DNA of 64,000 bases from positions 40,025 to 104,024 of the forward strand of contig JAHIYU010000177.1 of the NCBI GenBank assembly GCA_018814885.1, in the 5' to 3' direction. Shown here piece after piece: positions 20,029 through 45,829 of this stretch. The notes under the pieces were generated by a model. That model was not told where the DNA came from. It worked only from the letters and a program-made list of their open reading frames with translations, and searched no databases. The position numbers and the translations under genes were made by a program. How positions within the stretch are numbered: position 1 is the first letter of the stretch; every line of letters begins with the position of its first letter. The DNA comes from a bacterium (GTDB lineage Bacteria > Krumholzibacteriota > Krumholzibacteriia > LZORAL124-64-63).

Positions 20029-20050
20029 CGTTTCAAGACTTGTGGTTCTC

Positions 20051-20127
<77 letters not shown>

Positions 20128-20214
20128 ACCGAGATGTCCCAGCACGGGCGATAACCCGCGCGGTTCGACAATCTAATACGCTCCCGTCGGCATCACAAGC
20201 GCGGAATGGTCTGG

Positions 20215-20601
20215 TCACTCCCCCTTGGCCTTCATCTCCTTGAGGAGATCCATGACCTCCTTCAGCTCGCGTCTGAGGTGGGCGATCCGCTTGCCGCGGT
20301 TCTGACCCTCGAAGAGCGATTCCTGCGGTTGTTCCTGTTCCTTGGCCGCGGCGCCGCGCTTGTGTTCGCGCAGGTGCTTGCGGGCGCCCTCGATGCGGTA
20401 GCCTTCCTCCTGCAACAGACTGCGGATCGTCAGGATCTCGTCGATATCCTTCTTGCGGTAGTTGCGCGCGCCGGAGCGGGCCCGCTTGGGCTTCAGGGTG
20501 GGGAACTCGCTCTCCCAGTAGCGTAGGACGTGCGGTTCCACGCCGGTATGCTCGGCGACTTCGCGTATGGAGTAGTAGAGCTTGTCGGGTAGTTCCGCCA
20601 C
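20215..20601 (-). CDS. MerR-family transcriptional regulator
   Basis: N-terminal MerR HTH (YSIREVAEHTGVEPHVLRYWESEF) plus C-terminal coiled-coil/basic tail. 128 aa. Confidence 0.75.
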   Translation of the reverse strand: MAELPDKLYYSIREVAEHTGVEPHVLRYWESEFPTLKPKRARSGARNYRKKDIDEILTIRSLLQEEGYRIEGARKHLREHKRGAAAKEQEQPQESLFEGQNRGKRIAHLRRELKEVMDLLKEMKAKGE

Positions 20602-20628
20602 GGGTCCTCTCCCATCAATCGACGATTC

Positions 20629-21642: not shown

Positions 21643-21659
21643 TGTCCAGCCTTTCGCCG

Positions 21660-22334
21660 CTAGCCGGTCGTCCTGTCGTCCAGGCCGTTGGACTCGAGGG
21701 GTTTCTCCGTCCCCGCCTGCAGGCGCTTGATGTTGGTGCGGTGCTTGACCAGGACCCAGAGGCAGATGACAAGCGTGAACACGAAGATGGTCTTGGAGAA
21801 CTGCTCCGAACGCAACTCGAAATAGCCCACGGCGATGGGCAGCACGATGGCGGCGACGATGCTGCCCAGGGATACGATCCGGGTGATCGCCATCATGATC
21901 GCGAAGGCGCCCAGGGCGACGAGCGTGGGGTAAGGCGCCAGCACGAAGAAGGCGCCGCTGGTGGTCGCCACGCCCTTGCCGCCGTGGAAGCCCACGAACG
22001 GCGACAAGGTGTGGCCCAGGGCCGCCACGAAACCGGCGAAGATGCGCCACAGGTCGGGCGGCAGGTGCAAAGGTGTGGGCTGTCCCCCGGGCCAGGTCGC
22101 GGTCACCGCCGTCATGGCCAGCACGGCGACGGCGCCCTTGGCCATGTCCAGCAGCAGCACCAGCAGGCCCCACCAGGGGCCCAGGGTGCGGAAGACGTTG
22201 GTGGCGCCGAGATTGCCGCTACCATGCTCGCGCAGGTCGATGCCCCGCAGACGCTTGGCGACTATGAAGCTGAACGGTATGGCGCCGAGCAGGTAGGAGA
22301 GCAGAAGAACGAGTATCAGCAGCATGTGATGCAC
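21660..22334 (-). CDS. plsY: Glycerol-3-phosphate acyltransferase PlsY
   Basis: GSGNLGATNVFR and FHGGKGVAT motifs. About 5 TM helices. gpsA-plsY adjacency. Confidence 0.85.
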   Translation of the reverse strand: MHHMLLILVLLLSYLLGAIPFSFIVAKRLRGIDLREHGSGNLGATNVFRTLGPWWGLLVLLLDMAKGAVAVLAMTAVTATWPGGQPTPLHLPPDLWRIFAGFVAALGHTLSPFVGFHGGKGVATTSGAFFVLAPYPTLVALGAFAIMMAITRIVSLGSIVAAIVLPIAVGYFELRSEQFSKTIFVFTLVICLWVLVKHRTNIKRLQAGTEKPLESNGLDDRTTG

Positions 22335-22337
22335 CTC

Positions 22338-23648
22338 TCAATGCTTCTTGAGCTTCACGAAGATGCGACTTCCCTCGAAACCGAATCGCGCGCGTATCTT
22401 GTTGTTGATGAACCTCACGAAGCTGCGGTCGAACCACTGGGGATTGTTGACCGAGAGCATGAACACCGGTGGTGCCGTGTCGATCTGCGTCGCGTAGTAG
22501 ACCTTGCCCGTGCCGCCGCCGTGGAAGCGCGGGGGCTGCTTGTGGATCACGCCCTCCAGGTAGGCGTTGAGCACGCTGGTCTCGACCCTGCGCAGGCGCG
22601 CCTCGTGCACGGCCCAGACCGTTTCCAGGACACGCCCGCTGCGCTGGTGCGTGTGCGCCGACAGGGTGAACCACGGAGCGTAGGTCAGGAACGGGACCTC
22701 GCGGCAGAACGTCTCCCAGACCCCAAGATGCGTATTGTGGTCCTTCTCCACCAGGTCCCACTTGTTGAAGGCCACCACCACGCCCTTGCCGCTGTCGTGT
22801 ATCAGGCCGGCGATCTTGGCGTCCTGGCTGACGGTCCCGTCGCTGGCGTCCACCATCAGCACGGCCACGTCGCACTGTTCCAGGGCGAGAAATGTGCGCA
22901 TGTTGCTGAAGGCCTCGACGGCTTCCTGGACGCGCGACTTGCGGCGAAGGCCCGCCGTGTCGATCAAGCGCAGGGTGCGGCCATGCCAGCGCAGGTCGGT
23001 GTGGATGGCGTCGCGGGTAGTGCCCGCTATTTCGCTGACCAGGGCGTCCTGTCGGCCGGTGAGCAGGTTGAGCAGGCTCGACTTGCCCACGTTCGGACGG
23101 CCGAGGATCGCCACGCGAGAGTCGCAGGGGGCCTCGACGGTCTGCTTGGGGAAGTCCGCCGCGACCCGGTCGAGAAGGTCGCCGATGCCGTGGCCATGCA
23201 GGGCGCTGATGACGTGGGGCTCCCCCAGGCCGAGGGAGTAGAACTCCGCCGCGCTGAGACGCTGATGCTCCTTCTCCACCTTGTTCACGCAGAGGACCAC
23301 GGGCTTGCCGCTGCGTCGAAGATGCTGGGCGATGGCGTCGTCCCAGCTGGAAAGGCCGCCCGAGCCGTCGACCATGAAGAGCACCACGTCGGCCTCTTCG
23401 ATGGCGTCGTGGGCCACCTCTGTCACCAGGGCGTCGAAGCGCGAGACCTCGTCGCCGAAGGGAACGATGCCGCCGGTGTCCAGCAGCAGGAAGGCATGGC
23501 CGGCCCAGTCGGTCAACTCGGCGATGCGGTCGCGCGTCACGCCCGGTGTCTCGTGGACGACCGAGCGGCGCTGACCGATGATGCGGTTGAACAGCGTCGA
23601 CTTGCCCACGTTGGGGCGGCCGACGATCACCACCGTCCTGGTCGACAC
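22338..23648 (-). CDS. der: Ribosome-biogenesis GTPase Der (EngA), tandem GTP-binding domains
   Basis: Two G domains (GRPNVGKSTLFN and GRPNVGKSSLLN) plus a KH-like C-terminus. Confidence 0.9.
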   Translation of the reverse strand: MSTRTVVIVGRPNVGKSTLFNRIIGQRRSVVHETPGVTRDRIAELTDWAGHAFLLLDTGGIVPFGDEVSRFDALVTEVAHDAIEEADVVLFMVDGSGGLSSWDDAIAQHLRRSGKPVVLCVNKVEKEHQRLSAAEFYSLGLGEPHVISALHGHGIGDLLDRVAADFPKQTVEAPCDSRVAILGRPNVGKSSLLNLLTGRQDALVSEIAGTTRDAIHTDLRWHGRTLRLIDTAGLRRKSRVQEAVEAFSNMRTFLALEQCDVAVLMVDASDGTVSQDAKIAGLIHDSGKGVVVAFNKWDLVEKDHNTHLGVWETFCREVPFLTYAPWFTLSAHTHQRSGRVLETVWAVHEARLRRVETSVLNAYLEGVIHKQPPRFHGGGTGKVYYATQIDTAPPVFMLSVNNPQWFDRSFVRFINNKIRARFGFEGSRIFVKLKKH

Positions 23649-23741
23649 GTACCCTCCCGGCGACTTTAAGCGATAGCCGCAACTGGTTGATATTTAAGAT
23701 CATTAAGAGTCACGCGGTCGCTCACGCAAAGTCAGGAGACG

Positions 23742-25043
23742 TTAGCCCAAAACGGCCCAGAAGTCAATCAGGCCTTCTTCGTCCGGCACGTGGAGGCGGT
23801 GCGGCTGCCCGGCGGCGATGGCGTCCAGCGTCAGGTCGTCGAGTGCCAGGTCGTCGCTGTTGAACATGCGGGGCGGCAGCAGGACGTCGCGGATCGGAGC
23901 GACAGGCAGTGCGTCCAATGCGCGGCGCACGTCCCCCCCCGAGAGCAGGCCGGCCACGGTCACGCTGGCGCCATAGAAAAAGTTGTCCACACCGACCACC
24001 TCTATCTGCGGCAGATCCGGGCCGCTCAGCACGGGCGTCAGGCGCTGGTCGAAGGCGGACTTGCCCAGCCGACCGGTCAGGATGGTCAGCGGGCGACGCG
24101 GCAGCGCACCGGTCGCGCGGCGGCGGGTCAGGCCCGCGGACCAGCAATGTTCGAGGTTGCGGGTGATGCCGATGCCGTTGTCGAGCTGCGCGAGGTCGTC
24201 GTACTGGCCCAGCGGCGGGAAAGGACGGCCTGCCAGCAGGTAGAACTCGTCGCTGAGGTGCACGAAGGCCGGACCGCCGCCGGCGCGCAGCCGATCCTGC
24301 CAGGCGTGCACCTGATCGATCGTGGCCGCGGCCAGACCGGGGGGCACGGATTCCAGCTTCGTCAAGCCCTCGCGATGCGCAGACAGGCCCACCGGCACCA
24401 CGGCGAGCGTCTCGACGCCGGGCCGCAGGGCCGCCAGGTCGGCGATGGAGCGGTCGAGGATCCCGCCGTCGTTCCAGCCGGGGCAGAGCACGATCTGGGT
24501 GTGGACGGTGATGCCGCCGTCGGTCAGCCGCCGCAGGAGCGCCAGCACGTCGATGCGCCTCTTGATGCCCAGCATGCGGGTGCGGACGTCGATGTCGGTG
24601 GCGTGCACCGACACGTACAGCGGCGTCATCCTCTGCTCGATGATCCGCTCGATGCCGCGCCGTCCCATCGACGTGAGCGTGATGTAGTTGCCGTACAGGA
24701 AGCTGAGCCGGTAGTCCTCGTCCTTGACGTAGATGCTCGAGCGCATACCCGCGGGGTTCTGGTCGATGAAGCAGAAGACGCAGTCGCAGGCGCAGGTCTT
24801 GAACTCCATGGCGGCGAAGCATGACGTGACCTGGTCCAGGGCGTGGGGTGCCAGGCTCACCCGGGTCTCGTCGCCGTCGGCACGACGGATGGTCAGGACC
24901 ATCTCGTCGCCGCGCGGCATGTAGTAGTACAGGTCCAGCATGTCCTCGACCGGCCGGCCGTCGACCGCGGTCACGGCGTCGCCCTCGCGCCAGTCGTGCA
25001 GCTTGCTCAGCGGCGACGGGAAGGGCTGGATCAACCGGATCAT
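23742..25043 (-). CDS. PDZ-domain / radical-SAM-like DUF512 family protein
   Basis: N-terminal PDZ-like segment followed by a Cys cluster (CACDCVFC) and DUF512-type core. Start at internal ATG (MIRLIQPF). Confidence 0.7.
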   Translation of the reverse strand: MIRLIQPFPSPLSKLHDWREGDAVTAVDGRPVEDMLDLYYYMPRGDEMVLTIRRADGDETRVSLAPHALDQVTSCFAAMEFKTCACDCVFCFIDQNPAGMRSSIYVKDEDYRLSFLYGNYITLTSMGRRGIERIIEQRMTPLYVSVHATDIDVRTRMLGIKRRIDVLALLRRLTDGGITVHTQIVLCPGWNDGGILDRSIADLAALRPGVETLAVVPVGLSAHREGLTKLESVPPGLAAATIDQVHAWQDRLRAGGGPAFVHLSDEFYLLAGRPFPPLGQYDDLAQLDNGIGITRNLEHCWSAGLTRRRATGALPRRPLTILTGRLGKSAFDQRLTPVLSGPDLPQIEVVGVDNFFYGASVTVAGLLSGGDVRRALDALPVAPIRDVLLPPRMFNSDDLALDDLTLDAIAAGQPHRLHVPDEEGLIDFWAVLG

Positions 25044-25304
25044 CGTCAACCTCGGTGGCGAAGTGCACGGATGCCCGTCCGCGCACGGCGGGGGAGCTTC
25101 CCCCATGATAGAAAGACGGGTCGCGCCTGCGCAACCCGTGAGGACGCCGCGAGGCTGGCCCGGTCCCGCAGGGTTCGTGCCGAGGAAGACCTCGATGCGG
25201 GCTGAGAAAAATCGGCCAGACCTGGACCAGACCTGGACCGAACAGAGTTACACGAAACGCGGGGAGTCACCGATCTGGTAACTCCCCGCGCTGCTTAAGG
25301 TTGC

Positions 25305-25380
25305 TGGAGCGGGCTACGGGGCTCGAACCCGCGACCACCAGCTTGGGAAGCTGGTGCTCTACCAACTGAGCTAAGCCCGC
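25305..25380 (-). tRNA. tRNA-Gly (anticodon CCC)
   Basis: Reverse complement is GCGGGCTTAGCTCAGTTGGTAGAGCACCAGCTTCCCAAGCTGGTGGTCGCGGGTTCGAGCCCCGTAGCCCGCTCCA. Anticodon loop is TTCCCAA. Confidence 0.9.
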
Positions 25381-25435
25381 ACCGCAACCGAGAAGTTAAG
25401 CCGAGGCGGCGGGTCGTGTCAAGCCGCCGCGGCCG

Positions 25436-26380
25436 TCAACCCTTCGCGACGGCCCGACGCAGCAACGCCTCGATCGCCTCCAGGAGGCGGGGGTCGTCGG
25501 GATCGCCGTAGGCCTCCCGCGTCTGGGCCCTGAACCAGGTCCGCTGCCGCTTGGCGTAGCGCGCGGTGCTGGCGACGATGCGTTCCCGCGTGTCGGGCAG
25601 GGAGCGGTCCCCGACCAGGTGCAGGACCAGATCGTGGTAGCCTAGGGTTCTCAGCCCGGGGGCGTCTGGGCCGAACTCGCCCAGCAGCTCGCGCGTCTCC
25701 TCGAGCCAGCCCGCGGACAGCATCCCGGCGGTGCGCGCGGCGATGCGCGAGCGTAGCGCGCTGCGTTCGCGGTCCAGCAGGACCAGGGGGAAGGACAGGC
25801 CGAGTGCCGGATCGGCTTCGCGCGCGCTCATGATCTCGGTCATCGTCCGTCCTGTGAGCCGGTGGATCTCCAGCGCGCGCTGGCTGCGGTAGCGGTCGTG
25901 AGGATGGATGCGCGCGAAACTGGCCGCGTCCACCCTGCGCAGGCGCTCGCGCACGGCCGCGTCGTCCAGGGCGTCCAGGTCGGCCCGGACCCCGGTCAGA
26001 TGCGGCGCGGTCCGGGGCACGGCGAAGAAACCGTCCCGCACCGCCGTCAGGTACAGGCCGGCCCCCCCCACCAGGAGGGGCAGGCGGCCGCGGGAGCGGA
26101 TGTCGTCCACCGCGCGGCAGAAATCCTCGCGAAAGAGCTGCGCCGAATAGAGCTCGCGGGGAGACAGGAAGTCGACCAGGTGGTGCGGGCAGGCCGCTCT
26201 CTCCTCGGCAGTGGGCTGGGCCGTGCCGATGCGCAGGCCGCGGTAGATCTGCCGGCTGTCCAGGGAAACGATCTCGATGGGGTGGCGCCGCGCCAGCGAC
26301 ACGGTCAAGGCGGTCTTGCCCACGGCCGTGGGCCCCGCGATCACGGGACAGACGCCGCACGTGCCCGCCCGCGCGCCCAC
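25436..26380 (-). CDS. miaA: tRNA dimethylallyltransferase
   Basis: P-loop IAGPTAVGKT...SLDSRQIYRGL..IGTA MiaA signature. Directly downstream of mutL. Confidence 0.9.
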   Translation of the reverse strand: MGARAGTCGVCPVIAGPTAVGKTALTVSLARRHPIEIVSLDSRQIYRGLRIGTAQPTAEERAACPHHLVDFLSPRELYSAQLFREDFCRAVDDIRSRGRLPLLVGGAGLYLTAVRDGFFAVPRTAPHLTGVRADLDALDDAAVRERLRRVDAASFARIHPHDRYRSQRALEIHRLTGRTMTEIMSAREADPALGLSFPLVLLDRERSALRSRIAARTAGMLSAGWLEETRELLGEFGPDAPGLRTLGYHDLVLHLVGDRSLPDTRERIVASTARYAKRQRTWFRAQTREAYGDPDDPRLLEAIEALLRRAVAKG

Positions 26381-28183
26381 TCAACGTCTCCCGAATCTCT
26401 TCTCGAGCTCTTCACGCGTGAACTGGATGAGGGTCGGGCGCCCGTGAGGGCAAGAAAGGGGCTTGTCGGTGGCGAAGAGCCGGTCCAGCAGGTTCTGCAT
26501 CTCCGGTTGCGTCATCAGGGCACCGGCGCGCACCGCGCCGTGACAGGCATAGCTGGCGAGCAGATCGTCGTGGGAGGCGTTGTCGGCCCGGCCCGTCTCG
26601 GACAGGTCGTCAAGCACGTCGAGCAGGAGCTGACCCTCGCGCCAGTTCTTGAGTGACGAGGGGATGCCCTGGACCAGGATCGAGTGCCCCCCGAAGGGCT
26701 GGATGGCGAAGCCCAGCTTTCCCAGTTCGGCGGCGTGAGACTGGTAGGTCTGCACCTGCATGGGCGTGAGGTCGAGGTTGACGGGGAACAGGAGCTGCTG
26801 CACGGGCACGCGGGGGGATGTCTCGCCCAGGGTCTTGCGGGCCTCGTTGTAGAGGATCCGCTCGTGGCTGTTGTGCTGGTCGATGATCAGCAGCCCGCCC
26901 CGGGTCTGGGTGCAGATGTAGGTCCGGTGCAGTTGCCAGAACGGAGCCTGCCGCCCCGGCTCTCCCCCGCCGGTGCCCGGGAACGGGTCGGCAGCGATAA
27001 TCCGGGCCTCACGGCCGTCGGCGCCGTCGAAGAGCGACGGTTGCCCGTCGGCGGGCGCGCCGCCCGGAGACGTGAAATGCCTGCGCAGATAATCCTCCTG
27101 AGCTTCCGCGAGGCTCTGCAGGGGGCCGCGGTTGGACGATGGCGCATCGACGGGCGCCGTCCCGTCGTCCGGCGCGAAGGCGGGGTCGGCTCTCAGATCG
27201 AGACCTTCGCGCAGCGCGGTCATGACCATGCCGAAGATGTGGCGCTCCAGCACCAGGCGCACCTCGCTCTTGGTCGGATGTACGTTCACGTCCACGTCCC
27301 CGTGGGGGATGTCCAGAAAAAGCAGGACGACTGGATGCCGTCCCGGCGGGATGACGTCCTTGTATGCCAGCCGCACGGCCTGCGCCAGCGCGTTGCTCTC
27401 GACCGGCCGCCGGTTCACGTAGAAGAACTGCTGCGCGCGGCTGATCCGGGTCAGGGTGGGGCGCGAGGCGAGGCCTCCCACACCGATTCCCCCCTCCACG
27501 CGCTCGAAGCGGCCCAGGTGCTCCAGAATCTGGGCGCCGAGGAGATCGCGCACGCGCGACGGCAGCGAATCGGCGGGCAGGAGATCCAGCAGCGTCGTGC
27601 CGTCGGCCGTCAGGCGCCAGCGCACTTCGGGATAGGCCAGAGCGATGGTGGTGACGGTGTTCAGGACGGCTTTCTTCTCGGCCTGGGGCGTCTTGAGATA
27701 CTTGCGCCGGGCCGGCGTGTTGTAGAAGAGATCCTCGATGGTGACAGTGGTGCCGCGGTTGCGCGGAGACGGTTCGCGCCGTTCGACGACGCTGCCCGCC
27801 ACGCGGATCATGCCACCCACATCCTCGTCGGCGGTCCGGCTGACCACAGTGCACCGACTCACCGACGCGATGCTGGCGAGGGCCTCGCCGCGGAAGCCGA
27901 ATGATGCCACCTGCGTTATGTCGGCGGCCGAGATGATCTTCGAGGTGGCGTGGCGTTCGAGGGCCAGCGGGAGCTCGCGGTAGGGTATGCCTTCCCCGTC
28001 GTCTTCCACCACGATGGCGGCAGCGCCGCCGTCCGTGATGGAAATCCCGATGTTGCCGGCCCCGGCATCCAGCGCGTTCTCGGCCAGTTCCTTGACCACC
28101 GAGGCCGGACGCTCGATGACCTCGCCGGCGGCGATGCGGTCGACCGAGGCGCTGTCCAGTATCCTGATGGGATGGCGAGGCAT
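26381..28183 (-). CDS. mutL: DNA mismatch repair protein MutL
   Basis: GHKL ATPase motifs (VVKELAENALDAGA, VVEDDGEGI) plus C-terminal dimerisation domain. Start at ATG 28183 (MPRHPIRILD). Confidence 0.9.
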   Translation of the reverse strand: MPRHPIRILDSASVDRIAAGEVIERPASVVKELAENALDAGAGNIGISITDGGAAAIVVEDDGEGIPYRELPLALERHATSKIISAADITQVASFGFRGEALASIASVSRCTVVSRTADEDVGGMIRVAGSVVERREPSPRNRGTTVTIEDLFYNTPARRKYLKTPQAEKKAVLNTVTTIALAYPEVRWRLTADGTTLLDLLPADSLPSRVRDLLGAQILEHLGRFERVEGGIGVGGLASRPTLTRISRAQQFFYVNRRPVESNALAQAVRLAYKDVIPPGRHPVVLLFLDIPHGDVDVNVHPTKSEVRLVLERHIFGMVMTALREGLDLRADPAFAPDDGTAPVDAPSSNRGPLQSLAEAQEDYLRRHFTSPGGAPADGQPSLFDGADGREARIIAADPFPGTGGGEPGRQAPFWQLHRTYICTQTRGGLLIIDQHNSHERILYNEARKTLGETSPRVPVQQLLFPVNLDLTPMQVQTYQSHAAELGKLGFAIQPFGGHSILVQGIPSSLKNWREGQLLLDVLDDLSETGRADNASHDDLLASYACHGAVRAGALMTQPEMQNLLDRLFATDKPLSCPHGRPTLIQFTREELEKRFGRR

Positions 28184-28278
28184 CGCGTCGTCGGCTCCCG
28201 TGATCCGTGGTTTCGATGGGACGGCAGGCCGGATGCTGCCGAGCAGGAGCCTAAGATAACGGCAGGCTGCGAGAATCG

Positions 28279-30546
28279 TCAATCATCGTCGCGCGACCGG
28301 TTGGTCAACCTGTGCAGGGCGGTGTCCACGAGTTCCTCCGGGGAGGTATCACGGCCGGGATAGAGGGCGCGGCCGACGCGCACGACCAGCTCGGGGTCTC
28401 CCGCCACCTCGCGCAGCGCCAGGACGGCGCGTTGTTCGAGGTGGGCCACGGCGTGGGTCTCCTCCGGGGCGACGACGAACAGCTGTCCTTCGTCCCCGGC
28501 GAAGAGCAGGTCAGAGGTCCGCAAGCGGGCGGCCAGGGGTTCCAGGTGCGCGGCGGCGGATATGTCCTGTCGATCACAGACGAAAGCGGAGAGGGAAAAG
28601 GCCACGTGGTAGCGATCCGCCCGGTCGATCTCGCGCGCCAGCGTCAGCAGCAAGGTGCCGGGGACGGCGGTGGCGGGTGCCGCGTCCCGCACGGTGCTTC
28701 TCTGGGAGCGGGGCTCGCCGGCAACGGCCGGCAGATTGGCCAGGTGGCGCGCCAGGACGCCGTCGAAGGCCGTGAAGGACGAACTGTCGCCGGGGTGCAG
28801 CCGATCCTTGTCGATCAGGATGAAGCCGGAGACGGCGGCGTTGCCGGGACCGCGCACCGCCAGGCAGGACCGCGACGGGCCGTCCATGAAACCGGGCGCG
28901 GTGACGGTGATCAGCCACCCAGCGTCGCCGACACGATCGATCAGCTCGCGGGCCGCGGCCCGCCGGGGATCGATCCCGGGTGCGGGATCCCCGGGGAACA
29001 CCACGTCCCTGGCGCCGGTCAGCCTCCGCAGGAACTGGTCGAGCGTGGCCCGGCGCTGTGCCGTGTCGCCGTAGTCGCGACGGGATTCATCGCCGAGAAA
29101 GGCGGTCAGGGCGCGCAGCCGTTCACAGTGATCACGTTCCTCGCAGCGGCGCAGAAGGTCCGTCAGCCGGTGGTCGAGAAAAGCCGCCACGGAACCGGCG
29201 CGCGCCTGGAAACGATGGGCGTCGGCGGCGGCCCCGAAACGGATGGCCAGCACCGCCCGGACCGGGGCAGGGCCGATGGGCAGGAAGAAGATGGACAGAC
29301 CGTCGCCATCGCCGGCTGCGTCTGCATCAGCCTGACGGACCACCACCGGCTTTGCGCTCTGGAGGACGTCGTCCCAGGCGGGGTGCTGCTGCGGGATGGC
29401 GCCGGTGTGGGTCTCGCCGGCGGCGGTGCCCTCGGCAAGCAGCAGGGCGCCGTCATCGAGCACGATCCCCAGCGATGCATGATCGGCACCCAGGGCCATG
29501 GCGAGGGCCGCGGACCAGCCGGCCAGGACCGTCTCCAGCTTCTCCTCTCCGCCGGCCAGTTCACGGAATTCACGGCTCAGGTGCTTGCGCATGTGGCCGG
29601 TCCACATGTGGCGATCCCCGGTCGTGATGTGCAGGATGCCGGCGATGGCGTCGCCGACGGTGCCGAGATCGGCAAGATGCGAGGCGTCGAACACAGGTTC
29701 CCCATGCCCGACGTTCACGTTCAGAACGCCGAGCAGGTCGCCGTCGTGGACCAGTGGCACGCACAGGGCGGCGGCGAGCTGTCCACGCTCGGGGCGCGTG
29801 TCTCCGTGCTGCGGCTCGCGCACGAGCTCGGGGAGACGCGACCGGGCCACGCGACCCGCCACGCCCGTGTCCAGGGGCTGCCGCGTGTGGTACAGGGTGC
29901 GTGCGCTCAATCCCCTGGCCGCGGCGATGAACAAGGCCTCCGCACGCGAATCGTACAGCATGAGGGATCCGGAGGTACCGCCCACGGCGGCCATGGCCAA
30001 CGACAGCAGCCAGGGCAGCAATGCCTCCCGGTCGTGGGCGTCCCCGATGCGGCCCAGCGTCTTGAGGGCTGCGTCGAGATTGCCTGTCGCGTGGACGGGG
30101 CCGGGCGTGTCCGGCTCCTCTGTGTTGGCGGTGGGCAATGGAGCGCCGCCGCCGGCGAGCAACATCTCGAATTCCTCGGCGCCCACCGCGAGCAGGGATC
30201 CGGTCTCGGCCGCCCTGCGGAGGGCGTCTTCGGAGCGCCGCTCAGGCGGCGTCACGACGTGCGTCTTGGACGGGGGTGAGAAGCCGGAGAAATCCGGTCG
30301 GACAGGCAGCCCCATGATCTCGGCCAGGGGCGTGCCGAGTGCGGTACCGGGTGGATCGACCACGCCGAGCAGGCGCACGTCCGCGCGCCGCCGGCAAACA
30401 GCCAACAGCGGTATCTCCCCCTCGCCCGGCCTGTAGAAGATCACGTGCCACATGGCGGACCGATCCGTTGCAGGGTTCGACCCTCTCGCATCCAGTATAG
30501 CATCGGCGGCTGGAGGGACACCTGTAGATTCGAGGGCCGCGGCCAT
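28279..30546 (-). CDS. Multidomain signalling protein: GAF domain(s) plus degenerate GGDEF-like C-terminal domain
   Basis: 755 aa. GAF-like block (SLMLYDSRAEALFIAAARG...CVPLVHDGDLLGVLNV). C-terminal DLLFAGDEGQLFVVAPEET...VRVGRALYP...VDTALHRLTNRS resembles a GGDEF domain with the GG[DE]EF motif changed to AGDEG. Confidence 0.6.
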   Translation of the reverse strand: MAAALESTGVPPAADAILDARGSNPATDRSAMWHVIFYRPGEGEIPLLAVCRRRADVRLLGVVDPPGTALGTPLAEIMGLPVRPDFSGFSPPSKTHVVTPPERRSEDALRRAAETGSLLAVGAEEFEMLLAGGGAPLPTANTEEPDTPGPVHATGNLDAALKTLGRIGDAHDREALLPWLLSLAMAAVGGTSGSLMLYDSRAEALFIAAARGLSARTLYHTRQPLDTGVAGRVARSRLPELVREPQHGDTRPERGQLAAALCVPLVHDGDLLGVLNVNVGHGEPVFDASHLADLGTVGDAIAGILHITTGDRHMWTGHMRKHLSREFRELAGGEEKLETVLAGWSAALAMALGADHASLGIVLDDGALLLAEGTAAGETHTGAIPQQHPAWDDVLQSAKPVVVRQADADAAGDGDGLSIFFLPIGPAPVRAVLAIRFGAAADAHRFQARAGSVAAFLDHRLTDLLRRCEERDHCERLRALTAFLGDESRRDYGDTAQRRATLDQFLRRLTGARDVVFPGDPAPGIDPRRAAARELIDRVGDAGWLITVTAPGFMDGPSRSCLAVRGPGNAAVSGFILIDKDRLHPGDSSSFTAFDGVLARHLANLPAVAGEPRSQRSTVRDAAPATAVPGTLLLTLAREIDRADRYHVAFSLSAFVCDRQDISAAAHLEPLAARLRTSDLLFAGDEGQLFVVAPEETHAVAHLEQRAVLALREVAGDPELVVRVGRALYPGRDTSPEELVDTALHRLTNRSRDDD

Positions 30547-33201
30547 TTACCCGAGTTGCTTCTTGATGCGCGCGAGCCAGAGGAAGGCGTCGAGAGGGCT
30601 GAGGGACTCGAGATCCAGTTCGCGCAGGCCGTCCAGGGCGTCCCGTTCACCGTCGGTGAACAGCGAGAGCTGTCGGTCGGGAGCGGCGAAGCTGTCGGCC
30701 GCCACGGAGAAGGCGGCGCCGTCCGGCAGACGATCCGGCGCCAGGGCGCGGGCGTCCTCGGCCGTCATGGTCGCCAGCAAGGTCTCGGCGCGCCGCAGCA
30801 CCGGTTCAGGCACGCCGGCCAGGCGCGCCACGTGGATGCCGTAGCTCTTGTCGCTGCAGCCGGGTTTGACGGCGTGCAGGAAGATGATCCTGCCCTCCCA
30901 CTCCTTCACGTCCATGCGCAGGTTCACCAGGCGCGGCAGCCGTGATTCCAGCTCGGTGAGTTCGTGATAGTGGGTGGCGAAGATGGTGCGGGGACGGGGG
31001 CCGTCGTCGTGATGCAGGAACTCGGTGATGGCCCAGGCCAGGGACAGGCCGTCGTAGGTGGACGTGCCGCGGCCGACCTCGTCCAGGATCACCAGACTGC
31101 GCCGGGACATCTGGTGGAGGATGCGCGCCGACTCGCTCATCTCCGCGAAGAAGGTGGATTGGCCGCGGGCCAGGTTGTCGCTGGCGCCCACGCGCGTGAA
31201 GATGCGGTCCGCGAGGCCGATGACCGCGCGGGCGGCGGGCACGAAGCCGCCGGCCTGTGCCATGATCGTCAACAGCGCCACCTGGCGCAGGTAGGTGGAC
31301 TTGCCGCCCATGTTGGGGCCCGTCAACAGGAGCACCTGGCGCGAGCCGCTGTCCAGCAGGGTGTCGTTGGGTATGAAGTCGTGATCGAGCAGGCGCTCGA
31401 CCACGGGGTGGCGGCCGCCGTTGATGTCCAGCACGAGCGAGTCGTCGCAGACGGGGCGGCAGTAGCCGCGCTGCTCGGCGATCTCGGCGTAGGCGAACAT
31501 CAGGTCCACGGCGGCGAGCAGGCGCGAGCTGCGGCGGATCTCGTCCAGGCGCCCGGCGACGGCGCGGACCAGGCGGCCGAAGATCTCGCTCTCCCGGGCC
31601 TGGATGCGGTCCTCCGCTTCCAGGATGGTCTGCTCGGCCCGCTTGAGGTCCTCGGTATGGAAACGCGCCGAGTTGACCAGGGTCTGTTTCTGCTGGTAGT
31701 CGGGCGGCACCTTGTCGCGGTGCTTGTTGGTCACCTCGAAAAAATAGCCGAACACCTTGTTGAAGCCGACCTTCAGCGTGGGGATGCCCGTGCGTTCCCT
31801 CTCCCGGGTCTGGAGCGAGGCGAGATATCCCTTGGTGTCGCTGGCGACGGACTTGGCGGCGTCCAGTTCCGCATCCACGCCGGAGCGTATGATGTCGCCG
31901 GGTTTCAGCTGGGCCGGCGGCTGGTCGGAGAGGGTGGACATGATCTCGACCGACAGAGCGGCCAGATCGGGCATCGCCAAGGCCCACTCCCCCGCCGGGT
32001 GGCTCCCGTGGCCGAAGGCCAGCACCTGGACTGCCACCTCGTGCGCAGCCTGCAGTGAGTTGCCGAGTTGCCGCAAGCGAGCGGGGCCGATGCGGCCGGA
32101 AGCCGCGTGCACGGCCCAGCGGTCCAGATCGCCCACGTCGCGCAGCGCGCCGCGCACGTCGCGACGCCAGTCCCTGTCCGATACAGCGCCGTCCACGCCG
32201 GCGTGCCAGCGCGCCAGCTCCTGCAGATCGGTCCAGGGTTCGGCCAGCCGTCGTTCGAGCAGGCGTCTACCCATGGGTGTGAGGGTGGCGTCCAGGTGGT
32301 GGACGAGCGTGCCTTCGCCCCGTTCACCCCGGAACGTGCGAAACACCTCCAGATTGCGCAAGGTCTCCTCGTCGAGCAGCAGCCGGTCTGCGCGCGCTGT
32401 GAAGACCAGCGACGTGATCTGCTCTGGCTTGCGCAGGGCGAGCGAGGTCAGGTAACGCAGCAGCGCGCCGGCTGCGCCGACGGCGGGGGCGCGCGACTCG
32501 TCCTCCAGGCCGAAGGGATCCAGGCTCAGCACGCCGAAATGATCGAGCAGCGTCTCGCGGGCGAAGGACGGATGGTACCAGGCGGCGCTCACGGTGTTGA
32601 TCACGGTGCCCGGCATGGCGCGCCGCCAGGTCCGGCAGAGCTCGGCGTCGACTCCTTCGGAGAGGATCACCTCGCGGGCGTCGTAACGCTCGCACAGGGA
32701 CGCCAGGCTGGCGTCCTCCTGGCCGCAACGGAACTCGCCCGTGCTCGCGTCGAGAACCGCCCAGCCGGCATCGCCGCCGGTGCCGGGCGCATACGACAGG
32801 CAGAACACGCCGCCGGCACCCTCGACCAATTCGGGGGCCGTGGCGGTCCCGGGGCTGACCACCTTGACCACCGCGCGCTTGACCAGACCCTTGGCCTGCG
32901 CCGGATCCTCCACCTGGTCGCAGATGGCCACGGTCAGACCGGCGGCGAGCAGCCGCGCGAGATAGGTGTCCAGGGCATGGTGGGGTACGCCGGCCAGGGG
33001 TACCGGGTTTTCGCTGTTCTTGTCGCGCGTGGTGAGGGTGACGTTGCAGGTCTCGGACAGCACGCGGGCGTCGTCGAAGAAGGTCTCGTAGAAGTCACCC
33101 ATGCGGAACAGCAGCAGCGCGTCGGGATGCGCTCGCTTTATCTCCAGGTACTGGGCGAGCATGGGCGTCAACTTGGGAGACGAGGCCTGCCGGGAGCTCA
33201 T
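30547..33201 (-). CDS. mutS: DNA mismatch repair protein MutS
   Basis: 884 aa. Mismatch-binding N-terminus (TPMLAQYLEIKRAHPDALLLFRMGDFYETFFDDA) and Walker A (GPNMGGKST). Confidence 0.9.
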   Translation of the reverse strand: MSSRQASSPKLTPMLAQYLEIKRAHPDALLLFRMGDFYETFFDDARVLSETCNVTLTTRDKNSENPVPLAGVPHHALDTYLARLLAAGLTVAICDQVEDPAQAKGLVKRAVVKVVSPGTATAPELVEGAGGVFCLSYAPGTGGDAGWAVLDASTGEFRCGQEDASLASLCERYDAREVILSEGVDAELCRTWRRAMPGTVINTVSAAWYHPSFARETLLDHFGVLSLDPFGLEDESRAPAVGAAGALLRYLTSLALRKPEQITSLVFTARADRLLLDEETLRNLEVFRTFRGERGEGTLVHHLDATLTPMGRRLLERRLAEPWTDLQELARWHAGVDGAVSDRDWRRDVRGALRDVGDLDRWAVHAASGRIGPARLRQLGNSLQAAHEVAVQVLAFGHGSHPAGEWALAMPDLAALSVEIMSTLSDQPPAQLKPGDIIRSGVDAELDAAKSVASDTKGYLASLQTRERERTGIPTLKVGFNKVFGYFFEVTNKHRDKVPPDYQQKQTLVNSARFHTEDLKRAEQTILEAEDRIQARESEIFGRLVRAVAGRLDEIRRSSRLLAAVDLMFAYAEIAEQRGYCRPVCDDSLVLDINGGRHPVVERLLDHDFIPNDTLLDSGSRQVLLLTGPNMGGKSTYLRQVALLTIMAQAGGFVPAARAVIGLADRIFTRVGASDNLARGQSTFFAEMSESARILHQMSRRSLVILDEVGRGTSTYDGLSLAWAITEFLHHDDGPRPRTIFATHYHELTELESRLPRLVNLRMDVKEWEGRIIFLHAVKPGCSDKSYGIHVARLAGVPEPVLRRAETLLATMTAEDARALAPDRLPDGAAFSVAADSFAAPDRQLSLFTDGERDALDGLRELDLESLSPLDAFLWLARIKKQLG

Positions 33202-34271
33202 GGGGAATCGTCTGCCTTGACCGGCAACGGGTCGAGATCGTAGCTGGCGCGCAGGAGGGCGGCCTGGTCGCGCGCCTGGGACATGCCGGGGTACGAGCCG
33301 GCGCGCAGCTTGTAGAGGGTCAGCCCGCGCTCGTCGGTCACCTCGCTGATCAGCAGCCCGGGAAGGCGCTCGCGCCAGTCATCCAGGAATTTCAACGCGC
33401 GGGCCCTGTCGGCGAAAGCGGCGAACTGGAGGGCGTAGCGTCCGGAAGCCGTTGCCGGCGCCGGAGATTCTTCCCCGAACGGCGTGGAATCGTGCGCGCT
33501 CGCCGACGGAGCTTCGAGACTCCGCTGCAACTCCTCCAGACGCAGCTCCTGCTCGGCGACGAGGGCGGCGGGCAGGGAGCGCGAGAAGCGGTGTTCCAGT
33601 TCGCGGCGAAGGCGGATGGCGTACTGGGGGTCCGTCTCGGCCGCCAGCATCCAGTCCACCAGCAGGATCTCGGCGCGACACGGCGTATCCTCGGTCCGGC
33701 CTGCCATCTCGAGGTAGCGCCGGGCCAGCGCCGGCTCGCCGTCGGCCAGCGCGAGTCGGGCCAGCAGATAACGGGCCCGGTCGTAATCGGGATCGCCCGG
33801 GGGCACGGCGGCCAGGGCGCCCCGGCTGCGCGCGACATCTCCCCGGGCGCGCCAGGCCAGTCCGCCCAGCAGGGTCGTGGAGGCCGCGGTCTCGCCGTTC
33901 CCCAGGGCTATTTCCTCCAGCGAGGCGATCGCCGCCGCGTAATCGCCAGCTCCGAAAGCCTGCCAGGCGGCGTCTGCGAGGAGCAGGTTGCGCGCCGGGG
34001 AGCCGAGATCGGGGGCGTCGAGCAACTCGCGTCGCAGTTCAGCGGCCTCCGCCGGGGATTCCGCGAGACGGAAGCGCCAGTAGAGAGACTGCGGGGTGGC
34101 GGCGTCGTTGGCCGTTAGTGCGGCGGTGAGTTCGCGGGCGTCCGTGAAGCGGCCCACGGCGAACAGGGAGCGTACGTCGTGCCAGTCGCCGCTGGGCGGA
34201 TCCGTGCCGCTGGCGACGGTTGCCGAGGCAACGGCGACGAGCAGGGCCGACCTCAGCACCGCTCGCCTCAT
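33198..34271 (-). CDS. Periplasmic TPR-like repeat protein with C-terminal SPOR domain
   Basis: Signal peptide MRRAVLRSALLVAVASA. C-terminal SPOR-like YALQFAAFADRARALKFL...YKLRAGSY. ATGA overlap with lapB. Confidence 0.65.
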   Translation of the reverse strand: MRRAVLRSALLVAVASATVASGTDPPSGDWHDVRSLFAVGRFTDARELTAALTANDAATPQSLYWRFRLAESPAEAAELRRELLDAPDLGSPARNLLLADAAWQAFGAGDYAAAIASLEEIALGNGETAASTTLLGGLAWRARGDVARSRGALAAVPPGDPDYDRARYLLARLALADGEPALARRYLEMAGRTEDTPCRAEILLVDWMLAAETDPQYAIRLRRELEHRFSRSLPAALVAEQELRLEELQRSLEAPSASAHDSTPFGEESPAPATASGRYALQFAAFADRARALKFLDDWRERLPGLLISEVTDERGLTLYKLRAGSYPGMSQARDQAALLRASYDLDPLPVKADDSP

Positions 34272-35440
34272 GCCGGCTCCCCGTAGGACGCAGGAGGAGC
34301 GAACGACGCGAAACTGCCGCAGTCGCGGCAATACCAGCGCACGCCCCGGGACTGCGCCGCACAGACGCGGCAGGTCCAGCTCCGGGGGCCCTCGGGGATG
34401 AACAGGGTGGACCAGACGCGGGTGAAGTCGCTGTCGGGCAGATCGTTGACCAGGATGCGCAGATACCCCGCCGCCACGGCCGGGGTCAGGCGCGGATCGC
34501 CTCGCTTGCTCTCGAGCATGCTGACCGCCTGTTCGCGGTCGCCGATCTTCTCCTGCAGCAGGGCCAGGGCCAGCCACAGGGAGGGCGGGGCGTCATCGTC
34601 CTGGCAGGCGGACTCGAGGATCGGGATGGATCTCTCGAAGCGACCTGCCGCCAGAAGGGCTTTCCGCAGGACCGGCAGCAGCAAATCGGCGGCGGCGGGA
34701 GCCAGGAGCAAACCCTCGGTGGCCAGCTCGGCGGCGCGTTCGTGGTTCTGCTCGCCGAGATGCGAATAGGCGCGCACGTAGAGCGCGAGGTGTCCGCGAG
34801 ATCCCGTCTTGTCCACGGTCCTGGCCAGGCGGCGTGCTTCGCCGTGATGCCCCGCCTGAGCGGCGCGCACTGCGCGGTCCAGCTGGAACAGTTCGTACTG
34901 GTCGGCGAATTCGGCGGCCGCTTCCGCCGGGGCGCGCTTGGCGCCTTCCTTGAGGGCGCGCGCTGCACCGTCCTCCTGCCCCTGTCCCAGGAACTGCCGG
35001 AAGCGCGCCCGCCAGAAACGGGGAGCCGAAAGATTGTGACGCAAAAGGGAGTCCAGCAGATCGCCGGCCTCGTCCCACAGCTCCAGGGACAGGAGGTCCT
35101 CGGTGAGCGCCAGGGTCACGGAGATCCTCTTGTGGGGCGGCAGCCCCGGGCGGGCGTTCAACCCGCGGTGCAGGGCGGCGGCCCGGCGCGGATCCCCGGT
35201 CAGGCGCAGCAGGTTGCCGAGCTGCAGGTAGGGATCGACGGCTTGCGGTTCCTGGTCGATGGCTTCCCGCAGAGCCTCGATCGCGCCGGCGGTATCGCCG
35301 GCCAGCCAGAGTTCCAGGCCGTGCGTGTAGGCGTCCTCGGCCACGCCGTGGCCGACGCGCCGGCGTAGGAGCAGGAACAGTGCCGCCGCCGCCAGCAGCA
35401 CGGCCAGGGCGATGAACCACGCGGAAGAGAATGCCGCCAT
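34268..35440 (-). CDS. lapB: Lipopolysaccharide assembly protein B (LapB/YciM): TPR repeats plus C-terminal rubredoxin-like zinc ribbon
   Basis: N-terminal TM helix, TPR repeats and C-terminal CRVCAAQ...WYCRDCG metal-binding motif. Located next to lapA. Confidence 0.8.
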   Translation of the reverse strand: MAAFSSAWFIALAVLLAAAALFLLLRRRVGHGVAEDAYTHGLELWLAGDTAGAIEALREAIDQEPQAVDPYLQLGNLLRLTGDPRRAAALHRGLNARPGLPPHKRISVTLALTEDLLSLELWDEAGDLLDSLLRHNLSAPRFWRARFRQFLGQGQEDGAARALKEGAKRAPAEAAAEFADQYELFQLDRAVRAAQAGHHGEARRLARTVDKTGSRGHLALYVRAYSHLGEQNHERAAELATEGLLLAPAAADLLLPVLRKALLAAGRFERSIPILESACQDDDAPPSLWLALALLQEKIGDREQAVSMLESKRGDPRLTPAVAAGYLRILVNDLPDSDFTRVWSTLFIPEGPRSWTCRVCAAQSRGVRWYCRDCGSFASFAPPASYGEPA

Positions 35441-35458
35441 CTGCTTGTCCTCCGTGGC

Positions 35459-35755
35459 TTAGTCCAGTTCGCGCAACGGCAGCGAACGCAACTCGGCGAT
35501 CTCGTTGTCACGGTCCCTCAGATCGCGCCCCAGGGCGCGGAGTCGGTTGCGCAGCTTGACTTCGCGAATGCCGCCGACGACCAGGCTGACGAATATGCCG
35601 GCGAGGAACCCGCCCAGCATCACGTAGTAGAGGGGGATGGCCAGGAACTTCCACCACAACAGGTCCAGGTCAACGGATTGATCGCTGTTCTGGGTGAAGA
35701 ACATGGCCATGGCGATCAAGACGAGCAGATAGAAGATTCCCTTGATGACCCACAC
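35459..35755 (-). CDS. lapA: Lipopolysaccharide assembly protein A (LapA/YciS, DUF1049)
   Basis: 98 aa with two TM helices and a C-terminal charged coiled segment. Immediately upstream of lapB. Confidence 0.7.
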   Translation of the reverse strand: MWVIKGIFYLLVLIAMAMFFTQNSDQSVDLDLLWWKFLAIPLYYVMLGGFLAGIFVSLVVGGIREVKLRNRLRALGRDLRDRDNEIAELRSLPLRELD

Positions 35756-35785
35756 GATTACACCTCGCGGCTGGTTCGAGTCGAT

Positions 35786-37120
35786 TCAAGCCAATTCGGC
35801 GAAAAAGGTCGTCGCCTCGCAACCGGTGATGCGGATGTCGAGCACGTCGCCGACGGCGGCGTTGCAGTCCTTCAACAGTACCTTGCGGTTGTTCGGCGTT
35901 CGTGCCTTCAGCGCCCCCTCCGGCCGGCGGGCTCTCCCCTCCACGGCTGCTCTTCTGCAGTGCCCGATCTCCTGCGCGGCGAGTTCCTGCCAGATCTCGT
36001 CCTGGAGACGCATCACCTCGGCCAGGCGTTCCTTCTTGACCGCGATGTCGACATCGTCATCCAGCCTGGCCGCGGGGGTCCCCGGCCGCGCCGAGTACTT
36101 GAAGTTGAAGGTCTGATCGTAGCGGACCTCCCTCACCAACTCAAGCGTCAGTCGGAAATCGTCGTCGGTTTCCCCCGGGAAGCCCACGATGAAATCGCCC
36201 GAAAAGGTCGCGTCCCGGACCAGACGTCGCGCCGTCTCGATCAGGGAGAGGTACTGGTCGCGGGTGTAGAAGCGCTTCATGCGCCGCAGGATGCGGTCGC
36301 TGCCGCTCTGCGCCGGCAGGTGCAGCCAGGGGCAGACCTTGTCCAGCGAGCCGATCGTGCCGATCAACCGCTCGTCCATGTCGCAGGGGTGCCCCGTCAG
36401 GAATCGGATGCGCGCCAGGCCGTCGATCCCGGCCACCTGGCGCAGCAGGCCGGCGAAATCCAGACCGGGCGCCCGATAGGCGGTGACGTTCTGGCCGAGC
36501 AGGGTGACCTCGTCCCCTCCCGCCGCGACGATGCCGCGGATCTCGTCCAGGATGGCGGATGGAGCCTTCTCGCGCTGGGGACCGCGCGTGGCCGGGACGA
36601 TGCAGTAGGTGCAGCGGTAGTCGCAGCCCTTGTGGATGGTCACCAGGTGAGAGTTGTTGGCGGGATAGGCCGCCGGCGGAGCCACGTAGTGCATTTCCGC
36701 GAGATGGCCCGTGGCCAGCGGCGGGGTGCGGGCGGCGCCCGACAGGAGCCGCGCCAGCATCCGGGGCAGCTGGGCGTACTGGTCGACGCCCGCCACGAGA
36801 TCCGCGTGCCCCTCTCCCGTGGCCAGCGCGCCGGAGAGACGCTCGGCCATGCAACCGCAGACGCCGATGATGTCGGCCCGGATCTGCCCACGGCGCCGCA
36901 GGCTGCGCAGCTCGCCGATGCGGCTGAAGACCTTGTGCTCGGCCAGTTCCCGGACCGAGCAGGTATTGAGAAGGATGATGTCGGCCGCGGCCGGGTCGCT
37001 GGCCAAGGCATAGCCGCTGCGCGTCAGGATGCCGCCGATGGCGGACGAGTCGTAGGTGTTCATCTGACACCCGTAGGTCTCGATGTAGACCCTGCGGCTC
37101 GCGGCTTCCGAAGAGGACAT
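35786..37120 (-). CDS. miaB: tRNA-i6A37 methylthiotransferase MiaB
   Basis: MTTase N-terminal Cys triad (YGCQMN, NTCSVRE, GCMAE), radical SAM CDYRCTYC and TRAM domain. Confidence 0.9.
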   Translation of the reverse strand: MSSSEAASRRVYIETYGCQMNTYDSSAIGGILTRSGYALASDPAAADIILLNTCSVRELAEHKVFSRIGELRSLRRRGQIRADIIGVCGCMAERLSGALATGEGHADLVAGVDQYAQLPRMLARLLSGAARTPPLATGHLAEMHYVAPPAAYPANNSHLVTIHKGCDYRCTYCIVPATRGPQREKAPSAILDEIRGIVAAGGDEVTLLGQNVTAYRAPGLDFAGLLRQVAGIDGLARIRFLTGHPCDMDERLIGTIGSLDKVCPWLHLPAQSGSDRILRRMKRFYTRDQYLSLIETARRLVRDATFSGDFIVGFPGETDDDFRLTLELVREVRYDQTFNFKYSARPGTPAARLDDDVDIAVKKERLAEVMRLQDEIWQELAAQEIGHCRRAAVEGRARRPEGALKARTPNNRKVLLKDCNAAVGDVLDIRITGCEATTFFAELA

Positions 37121-37135
37121 GTCTGCTCCGTGTAC

Positions 37136-38473: not shown

Positions 38474-38555
38474 CACATCCGGTCCGGGACACACGGCGGG
38501 GGTGGAATCGGCTTCCACCCCCGCAGTTCAGGGACGACCCGGTTCCGCGAGGGAA

Positions 38556-45817: not shown

Positions 45818-45829
45818 GACGGCTCCTTG

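Follow-up and report, generated by a model that had tools for sequence, protein, structure and literature searches.

The stretch of DNA analysed here (the window) comprises 64,000 nucleotides from a bacterium of the Krumholzibacteriota (assembly GCA_018814885.1, contig JAHIYU010000177.1, positions 40,025 to 104,024), has a G+C content of about 68%, and raises the question of why a gene for a signalling-type protein, called X throughout, stands between the mismatch-repair genes mutS and mutL. Three minus-strand open reading frames (ORFs) run head to tail at 30547..33201 (884 amino acids), 28279..30546 (755 codons) and 26381..28282 (633 codons), and Pfam and NCBIfam confirmed that the middle one, as originally predicted, is flanked by bona fide mutS and mutL genes. 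On balance, X is probably an inactive GGDEF-superfamily receptor for cyclic dimeric GMP (c-di-GMP) that travels as a passenger in a conserved housekeeping supercluster, rather than a demonstrated regulator of mismatch repair.

The C-terminal domain of X (amino acids 626 to 755, numbered here and below by the 755-codon ORF; 28282..28671, minus strand) is a degenerate GGDEF domain. The Pfam GGDEF model (PF00990) does not match X even at E ≤ 1. However, a profile of 20 C-terminal sequences searched against the PDB gave GGDEF domains as all of its top matches (6d9m, E of 1.5e-3; 5llw and 6et7, 9.7e-3), followed by 6zxm and 3ign. An AlphaFold2 model of the domain (predicted local distance difference test [pLDDT] score, 88.9) retrieved GGDEF domains as all of its top 49 Foldseek matches in the PDB, with E values from 1.1e-6 to 7e-3 and TMq values of 0.63 to 0.78 (0.73 to 0.78 for the best ones). 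The profile matches and the predicted structure show a GGDEF fold and place the domain in that superfamily, as the original prediction had proposed, although Pfam misses it. The domain search suggested at that time gave a divided result, in which GAF was recognised by Pfam and GGDEF only by the family profile against the PDB and the structure model; NCBIfam has no match to X, and GAF is the only Pfam assignment.

The active-site residues are lost. In the alignment to the GGDEF and GGEEF motifs of 6d9m and 5llw, the equivalent position in X is D685-E-G-Q-L689 (28480..28494, minus strand), two residues further on than the AGDEG that had been taken as the motif replacement, and the family consensus at this position is x-D-G-x-L. 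Across 51 near-complete X orthologues extracted from 58 related loci and aligned, the motif positions drift, with G at the third in 43 orthologues and T at the fourth in 30, so that the acidic third and fourth residues of GG[D/E]EF are absent. The segment that reads DxDxFKxxNDxxGHxxGD in active cyclases is about 12 to 14 residues shorter in X than in 6d9m and 5llw. The metal-binding Asp position, mapped to residue 655 by our own alignment to PleD, is F, L or Y in the orthologues, and neither this Asp nor the guanine-binding Asn/Asp is retained. With its catalytic acidic residues gone and a segment of roughly 12 residues, the bearer of the substrate-binding residues, deleted, X would be unable to make c-di-GMP.

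The inhibitory site (I-site), by contrast with the drifting active-site positions, is retained. The RxxD motif R676-T-S-D679 (28510..28521, minus strand) aligns to the RxxD of 6d9m and 5llw and is separated from DEGQL by exactly five residues, which is the canonical I-site spacing. R676, S678, D679 and R706 are invariant in all 51 orthologues, as are R638, E639, R642, D644, R645, Y646 and H647 in the first GGDEF helix and P694, Y729 and P730; RxxD is also present in 123 of 123 proteins of a sister family described below. R706 has as its counterpart in 6d9m the Arg of "AERIR," on the following helix, and was compared with the position of PleD R390 and SgmT R794 by alignment alone; the matching Arg of the sister family lies one column off. 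The rule that a degenerate active site (A-site) with an intact I-site makes a c-di-GMP receptor has been stated and tested for SgmT and PopA, and mutation of the I-site abolishes binding by SgmT (PMC3509222). PelD, which combines GAF with GGDEF and has a dissociation constant of 0.5 to 1.9 μM, and PopA are both listed as c-di-GMP receptors (PMC10519070). By analogy with PopA, SgmT and PelD, the conserved I-site suggests that X binds c-di-GMP or a related nucleotide there, and the best reading of the alignments agrees with the earlier description of a "c-di-GMP-binding or inactive sensor." X may integrate this nucleotide signal with ligands of its GAF domains, and, since it has no DNA-binding or enzymatic output domain, it would act through protein-protein contacts or localisation.

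The remainder of X consists of four domains, and no transmembrane segment was found in the protein. The N-terminal domain (amino acids 32 to 144; 30115..30453, minus strand; model pLDDT, 88.2) has a Rossmann-like beta-alpha-beta fold, as do NAD(P)-binding Rossmann domains of the Gfo/Idh/MocA and DapB types and the MurC N-domain. The Gly-rich dinucleotide loop GxGxxG is absent, and in its place stands x-P-G-E-x-E (Y-R-P-G-E-G-E in the window), with an invariant P40 and near-invariant G41 and E44 among homologues. Its sequence match to Gfo/Idh/MocA is weak (E of 0.09). The N-domain alignment gave no matches in a word-indexed search of proteins; an exhaustive hidden Markov model (HMM) search later succeeded, giving 72 matches among 1.84 billion representatives, 44 of them at E ≤ 1e-10. 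All 72 are the N termini of proteins of 550 to 790 amino acids or fragments of those, and to judge from these searches the domain exists only in the X family.

The original prediction also named GAF domains in the plural, of which one stands firmly. GAF domain 1 (amino acids 171 to 305; 29632..30036, minus strand) belongs to the GAF group by Pfam (GAF_2, E of 4.6e-14 and 53.2 bits against a cutoff of 28.6; GAF, E of 6.1e-10) and matches the GAF domain of 5w10 in the PDB (E of 5e-4). The second domain (amino acids 313 to 472; 29131..29610, minus strand) is a divergent GAF-like domain that scores with GAF_2 at only E of 0.013 in the window protein itself, is significant in 10 of 18 orthologues (best E, 4.6e-7), and aligns to the second GAF domain of the sister family. 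The third (amino acids 473 to 625; 28672..29130, minus strand) is an alpha/beta domain with a GAF_3 match in only 1 of 20 orthologues (E of 0.004); it is probably GAF-like, judging from its profile-level alignment with the sister family's third GAF region, and its K580, D587 and D595 are invariant in 51 of 51 orthologues. Profiles of the second and third domains gave nothing meaningful in the PDB, and hhalign of GAF domain 1 against these two domains found no similarity; both were assigned solely by scanning individual orthologues with Pfam and by comparison with the sister family.

Some variation in X was observed among the related loci. X ends in an acidic tail (…NRSRDDD; 28282..28299, minus strand) that is kept only in the clade of the window, as RDDD, RDED, GDED or DDDD, and that could be an interaction tail. 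A short X of about 550 to 565 amino acids, ending in …AHGD, occurs in the clade L049 to L053 and probably also in L054 and L055 (X at about 10016..11710); it lacks amino acids 150 to 311, and thus the sole Pfam-significant GAF domain, but its N-domain, both GAF-like domains and the degenerate GGDEF domain are retained. The MutS proteins of L049 to L055 are 72 to 73% identical to that of the window. In L046, L054 and L055, the alignment of X falls into an N-terminal and a C-terminal segment that lie in different frames, which may reflect frameshifts from assembly errors (L046 and L055 possibly being long-read assemblies) or pseudogenes.

A sister family places X in a wider setting. Four proteins that appeared as weak matches in the first search (P0027 to P0030, 756 to 771 amino acids) proved to be full-length homologues of X, and hhalign of the two families gave a probability of 99.9 and an E value of 6.8e-36 over 682 columns, from the N-domain through the C terminus. 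Members of this family (P0027 to P0152) are about 760 amino acids long and have the same five domains in the same order as X, with the second and third more clearly GAF-like than those of X. At least 163 clusters were found by profile search, with source names that include Myxococcota and Deltaproteobacteria, and the proteins are annotated as "GAF domain-containing protein" or, by the Joint Genome Institute (JGI) in part, as "diguanylate cyclase (GGDEF)-like protein." Their GGDEF domain is recognised by Pfam, lacks the deletion of about 12 residues seen in X, and reads [GAD][ED]xEF at the motif position; the alpha0 motif R-E-x-D-R-x-D-R-Y-H, which is invariant in X, differs in the sister family. 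In all six places examined (L061 to L066, contigs of Myxococcota type), the sister gene lies downstream of an EF-G paralogue, a 360-amino-acid gene of unknown function and an Arf-like GTPase gene in a nadC-birA-coaX cluster, and in none of the six is it near mutS or mutL. Stops and starts often overlap in this cluster, and in L062 an RNase HII gene lies directly upstream. Since the sister family is full-length and resides in an unrelated operon, the protein type is older than its location between mutS and mutL.

The start of X bears on how tightly the three genes are packed. A search of 5.8 billion proteins yielded 25 full-length X relatives, all metagenomic, with 32 to 100% identity. M32 (MWHVIFY; ATG at 30453) is the start position in all 24 homologues and in the NCBI annotation, and the upstream extension is closed by an in-frame stop in about 30 of 52 related loci. 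Therefore, X starts at 30453, 93 nucleotides past the mutS stop, and encodes a soluble protein of 724 amino acids (28279..30453, minus strand), which is 100% identical to the NCBI entry "GAF domain-containing protein [bacterium]" of the same length. The length of 755 amino acids and the gap of 1 nucleotide reported earlier arose from taking the longest ORF, starting at 30546, as the gene. The gap of less than 100 nucleotides before mutL was given correctly, being 95 nucleotides. The mutS-X spacer (30454..30546, minus strand, in the window) ranges from 71 to 243 nucleotides with a median of 117 (51 loci), and the X-mutL spacer ranges from 70 to 291 nucleotides with a median of 127 (57 loci). 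The gap between mutL and miaA, in contrast to these spacers, has a median of -2 nucleotides (52 loci), the two genes abutting or overlapping.

Both repair proteins of the window look complete and ordinary. MutS (884 amino acids; 30547..33201, minus strand) contains the Pfam domains MutS_I to MutS_V, scores 926.6 bits with the NCBIfam MutS equivalog, and carries a QLSLF clamp-binding-like motif close to its C terminus. MutL (600 amino acids; 26381..28183, minus strand) contains HATPase_c_3, DNA_mis_repair and MutL_C, scores 487.9 bits with TIGR00585, and has the endonuclease-type motifs DQHNSHERILY and CPHGRP; its start is the methionine of MPRHPIRIL at 28183, in agreement with L059, the public annotated equivalent of this part of the window.

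Conservation of the arrangement in relatives, which had been suggested as a check, was examined in 58 loci from metagenome-assembled genomes of Krumholzibacteriota and relatives (L001 to L058), obtained by scanning one genome per species of the GTDB set with the motif RE[ILM]DR[AC]DRY. The record titles are mostly Candidatus Krumholzibacteriia, and the others read "uncultured Fibrobacteraceae," "Latescibacterota," "Gemmatimonas" or plain "bacterium." The order mutS-X-mutL on one strand occurs in every locus with a sufficiently long contig. mutL follows X in all 55 loci with room on the contig and mutS precedes it in 48 of 51, the three misses being alignment artefacts (short variants in which only the C-terminal segment scored). 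Identities to the window proteins are 60 to 90% for MutS, 57 to 88% for MutL and 30 to 72% for X, and miaA adjoins in 50 of 50 loci. The trio lies within a collinear block of about 15 genes and about 20 kb (about 20050..40450, minus strand, corresponding to L059 1..20404), which was followed across the 58 loci and has the order rpsA, two tandem miaB/rimO-like radical-SAM genes, lapA, a TPR gene, a SPOR gene, mutS, X, mutL, miaA, a DUF512 gene, der, plsY, gpsA and merR. The genes that keep their place include those for MiaB (39 of 39 loci), TPR (43 of 43), MutS and MutL (45 of 45 each) and MiaA (40 of 40), followed by DUF512 (29 of 33), Der (27 of 31), PlsY (26 of 31) and GpsA (19 of 24). Insertions fall mainly in the miaA-DUF512 interval, in several loci, so that the core of the block is steadier than its downstream edge. 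The adjacency of mutS, X and mutL is no better conserved than that of miaB, lapA and the TPR gene or that of mutL and miaA. Since unrelated neighbours are equally fixed, gene order alone cannot tie X to mismatch repair.

Signals in the two spacers further suggest that X and mutL are each expressed from their own elements. A sigma70-like promoter motif, TTGACG-N18-TATCTT, lies upstream of mutL (28253..28282, minus strand); it is the only sigma70-like site within 24 to 36 kb of the window, and in the clade of the window the TGA stop of X forms part of the -35 hexamer (T-TGA-CG). Of the 58 X-mutL spacers, 54 contain the pattern TTGACG-N17/18-TA[ACT][ACT][CT]T, 32 to 142 nucleotides before mutL (shuffle mean, 0.01), with one-mismatch versions recognised by eye in the remaining 4, and the pattern has only 68 matches in total on the plus strand of 977 kb of loci. 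This is strong comparative evidence, at the level of sequence, for a promoter serving mutL and miaA. The mutS-X spacer contains a bipartite motif, TACAG-N14-GCCGAT followed by GC-TATACT (30494..30526, minus strand, with the bipartite element proper at 30526..30502), which may act as the promoter or an operator of X. Its general form in mutS-X spacers is T[CA][AC]A[GC]-N14-GCCGA[TA], followed in the clade of the window by TATACT or TATAAT. GCCGA is present in 46 of 52 mutS-X spacers, compared with a mean of 10 and a maximum of 18 in shuffles, and in 16 of 58 X-mutL spacers. The motif resembles an alternative-sigma promoter or an operator. A promoter of an extracytoplasmic function (ECF) sigma regulon was considered and set aside, as the motif does not recur in the 64-kb window (2 matches against 1.9 expected). 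Rfam found no match in either spacer, where a riboswitch (for example, for c-di-GMP) or another structured RNA was sought, and folding was no better than that of shuffles.

A CCGGGGTTATCCCCGG hairpin with a T-run, resembling a terminator, follows the X stop and precedes the mutL promoter motif in L018, L033, L038, L056 and L057, and related TTATCCCC sequences without a T-run occur in L041 to L043, L046 and L058. No terminator-like site was found between mutS, X and mutL in the window, and read-through transcription across the trio is possible. The three genes share conserved same-strand adjacency, but this adjacency is no better kept than that of unrelated neighbours, putative promoters lie in both spacers and, in a few relatives, a putative terminator follows X, and the trio is not a simple, tightly coupled operon. 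The co-transcription of X with the mismatch-repair genes that had been put forward is unsupported as stated, given the spacers of at least 70 nucleotides, the promoter-like motifs in both and the collinearity of the entire block.

Other features of the window were also recorded. miaA (314 amino acids, GTG start; 25436..26380, minus strand) abuts the mutL stop, and its product has a precomputed Pfam IPPT match; a 321-amino-acid ORF at 25419..26384 (minus strand) 3' of mutL was rejected as a wrong frame without a Pfam match, the real gene being miaA. Just 3' of miaA lies a tRNA-Gly(CCC) gene (25305..25380, minus strand), after which terminator-like hairpins occur at 25236..25216 and 25139..25116. 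The long ORFs encode holA, a PAS-HAMP kinase, cmk-plsC, scpB, uvrC, dapF, topA and secA. DNA-metabolism genes are thus abundant beyond mutS and mutL, with scpB, uvrC and topA on the minus strand (44253..46040, 47815..49677 and 58993..61689, respectively) and holA on the plus strand (1260..2294). The ORFs with ScpB, Cmk and DapF domains are very long and hold these domains in their C-terminal parts, and the true starts are probably internal. Two tandem overlapping paralogues of 830 and 848 amino acids (12492..14984 and 14981..17527, plus strand) contain DUF4350/GIFT-like (ABC_transp_aux) domains.

Different explanations of the C-terminal domain have to be weighed against a role in binding c-di-GMP. 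That X works as a diguanylate cyclase through an unusual active-site motif is hardly credible; the GGDEF fold and the JGI name on some sister proteins are in keeping with such an enzyme, but motif positions three and four are G and Q/T rather than D/E-E, F/L stands at the metal-binding Asp position, about 12 residues that include the guanine-binding ones are missing, orthologues do not conserve the motif positions, and the Pfam model fails at the loosest threshold used. It is distinctly unlikely that the RxxD...R patch is not a c-di-GMP site and that the dead GGDEF domain serves dimerisation or binds another nucleotide, such as (p)ppGpp or GTP, in which case X would be a ligand-sensing scaffold with its N-terminal Rossmann-like or GAF domains as the true sensors. 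Several observations lean in this direction and so weigh against the reading of X as a c-di-GMP receptor. The long ORFs of the window include no gene for a diguanylate cyclase, a phosphodiesterase or a PilZ protein. Canonical GGDEF genes were also sought by tblastn in related DNA (1.1 Mb) and not found, which is uninformative because this sample, one 22-kb neighbourhood repeated in 58 genomes, is tiny and redundant. The structural neighbours of the domain include PleD structures with (p)ppGpp and c-di-GMP (9g85 and 9g86), the restriction of the invariant alpha0 motif to X suggests lineage-specific surfaces, and the conservation of the I-site could serve another ligand or interface. However, the spacing of exactly five residues between RxxD and the GGDEF position is that of canonical I-sites, RxxD is invariant in X and the sister family alike, and the same pattern binds c-di-GMP in characterised proteins (PMC3509222).

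A separate explanation concerns what X acts upon. X may instead be a dedicated mismatch-repair regulator in which the ligand or c-di-GMP alters an interaction with MutS or MutL, for example by gating the MutL endonuclease or affecting MutS loading, so that repair fidelity would be tuned by a second messenger or a metabolic signal. This is unlikely, although part of the evidence speaks for it and against the passenger reading: the order mutS-X-mutL is strict down to MutS identities of about 60%, no X orthologue was found elsewhere in the lineage by the GTDB-set scan, and the trio, which has no terminator-like site between its genes in the window, is never split by an insertion even though insertions occur just after miaA. 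The unsplit trio and the sole location leave room for real functional coupling, and the promoter-like motifs that speak for separate expression are themselves read from sequence. On the other hand, the unrelated neighbours miaB, TPR and miaA are equally invariant in position, X and mutL appear to have their own conserved promoter-like elements behind spacers of at least 70 nucleotides, the Myxococcota sister family is tied to an Arf-like GTPase operon and not to repair genes, and MutS and MutL look complete and ordinary. The literature searched offered no precedent for the action of a c-di-GMP receptor on MutS or MutL; searches combining c-di-GMP with MutS/MutL, and Krumholzibacteriota with diguanylate cyclase or mismatch repair, returned only papers on Pseudomonas hypermutators and nothing relevant. 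A fuller version, in which X is a second-messenger-controlled component of mismatch repair whose bound c-di-GMP or GAF ligand switches MutS-MutL and whose upstream motif makes its expression stress-responsive, is improbable; if such control were true, a whole phylum would have built-in, signal-dependent control of its mutation rate. X is best filed as an uncharacterised architectural variant of the degenerate-GGDEF receptor class inside a frozen housekeeping block, its functional coupling to mismatch repair being possible and unsupported.

Should MutS or MutL prove to be a target of X, this would be the first link between c-di-GMP and replication fidelity found in the literature searched and a natural system of regulated mutation rate. 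Regardless of any link to repair, X is an uncharacterised and sharply delimited family, and, since an invariant I-site is paired with a dead active site, it stands out as a clean candidate for a receptor of c-di-GMP in two phyla that have been little studied. The locus also indicates that perfect conservation of gene order can stem from a frozen housekeeping block and not from a functional module.

Among known systems, PelD of Pseudomonas aeruginosa resembles X in having a GAF or GAF-like domain followed by a catalytically dead GGDEF-type domain, and it binds c-di-GMP at its RxxD I-site without enzymatic output (PMC10519070). PelD is membrane-anchored and encoded in the Pel polysaccharide operon, whereas X is soluble and encoded between mutS and mutL and has three GAF or GAF-like domains and a Rossmann-like N-domain; the likeness drawn here is one of architecture. 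PopA and SgmT share with X an A-site that is degenerate and an RxxD that is intact, and SgmT also has a GAF sensor. In SgmT a secondary Arg contributes to binding, and in both proteins c-di-GMP binding leads to localisation or partner recruitment rather than catalysis (PMC3509222). PopA is built on receiver domains and SgmT is a histidine kinase, and X has neither. The closest solved sequence relatives of the X C terminus are a Geobacter GAF-containing GGDEF enzyme (6d9m) and an Idiomarina phytochrome-GGDEF protein (5llw and 6et7), which share with X an alpha0 helix of the REIxRAxRY type and the RxxD spacing but, unlike X, have kept both the GGDEF/GGEEF motifs and the substrate-binding segments intact and are active cyclases. 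With respect to gene order, mutS and mutL are adjacent in Bacillus and far apart in Escherichia coli, so that the earlier statement that they are usually adjacent was overgeneralised. In the amiB-mutL-miaA-hfq superoperon of E. coli, mutL directly precedes miaA among unrelated housekeeping genes with internal promoters. The window resembles this superoperon in that mutL and miaA abut and in having a septal SPOR-domain gene upstream of mutS, and it differs in that the E. coli mutS is located elsewhere and no signalling gene stands beside the E. coli mutL.

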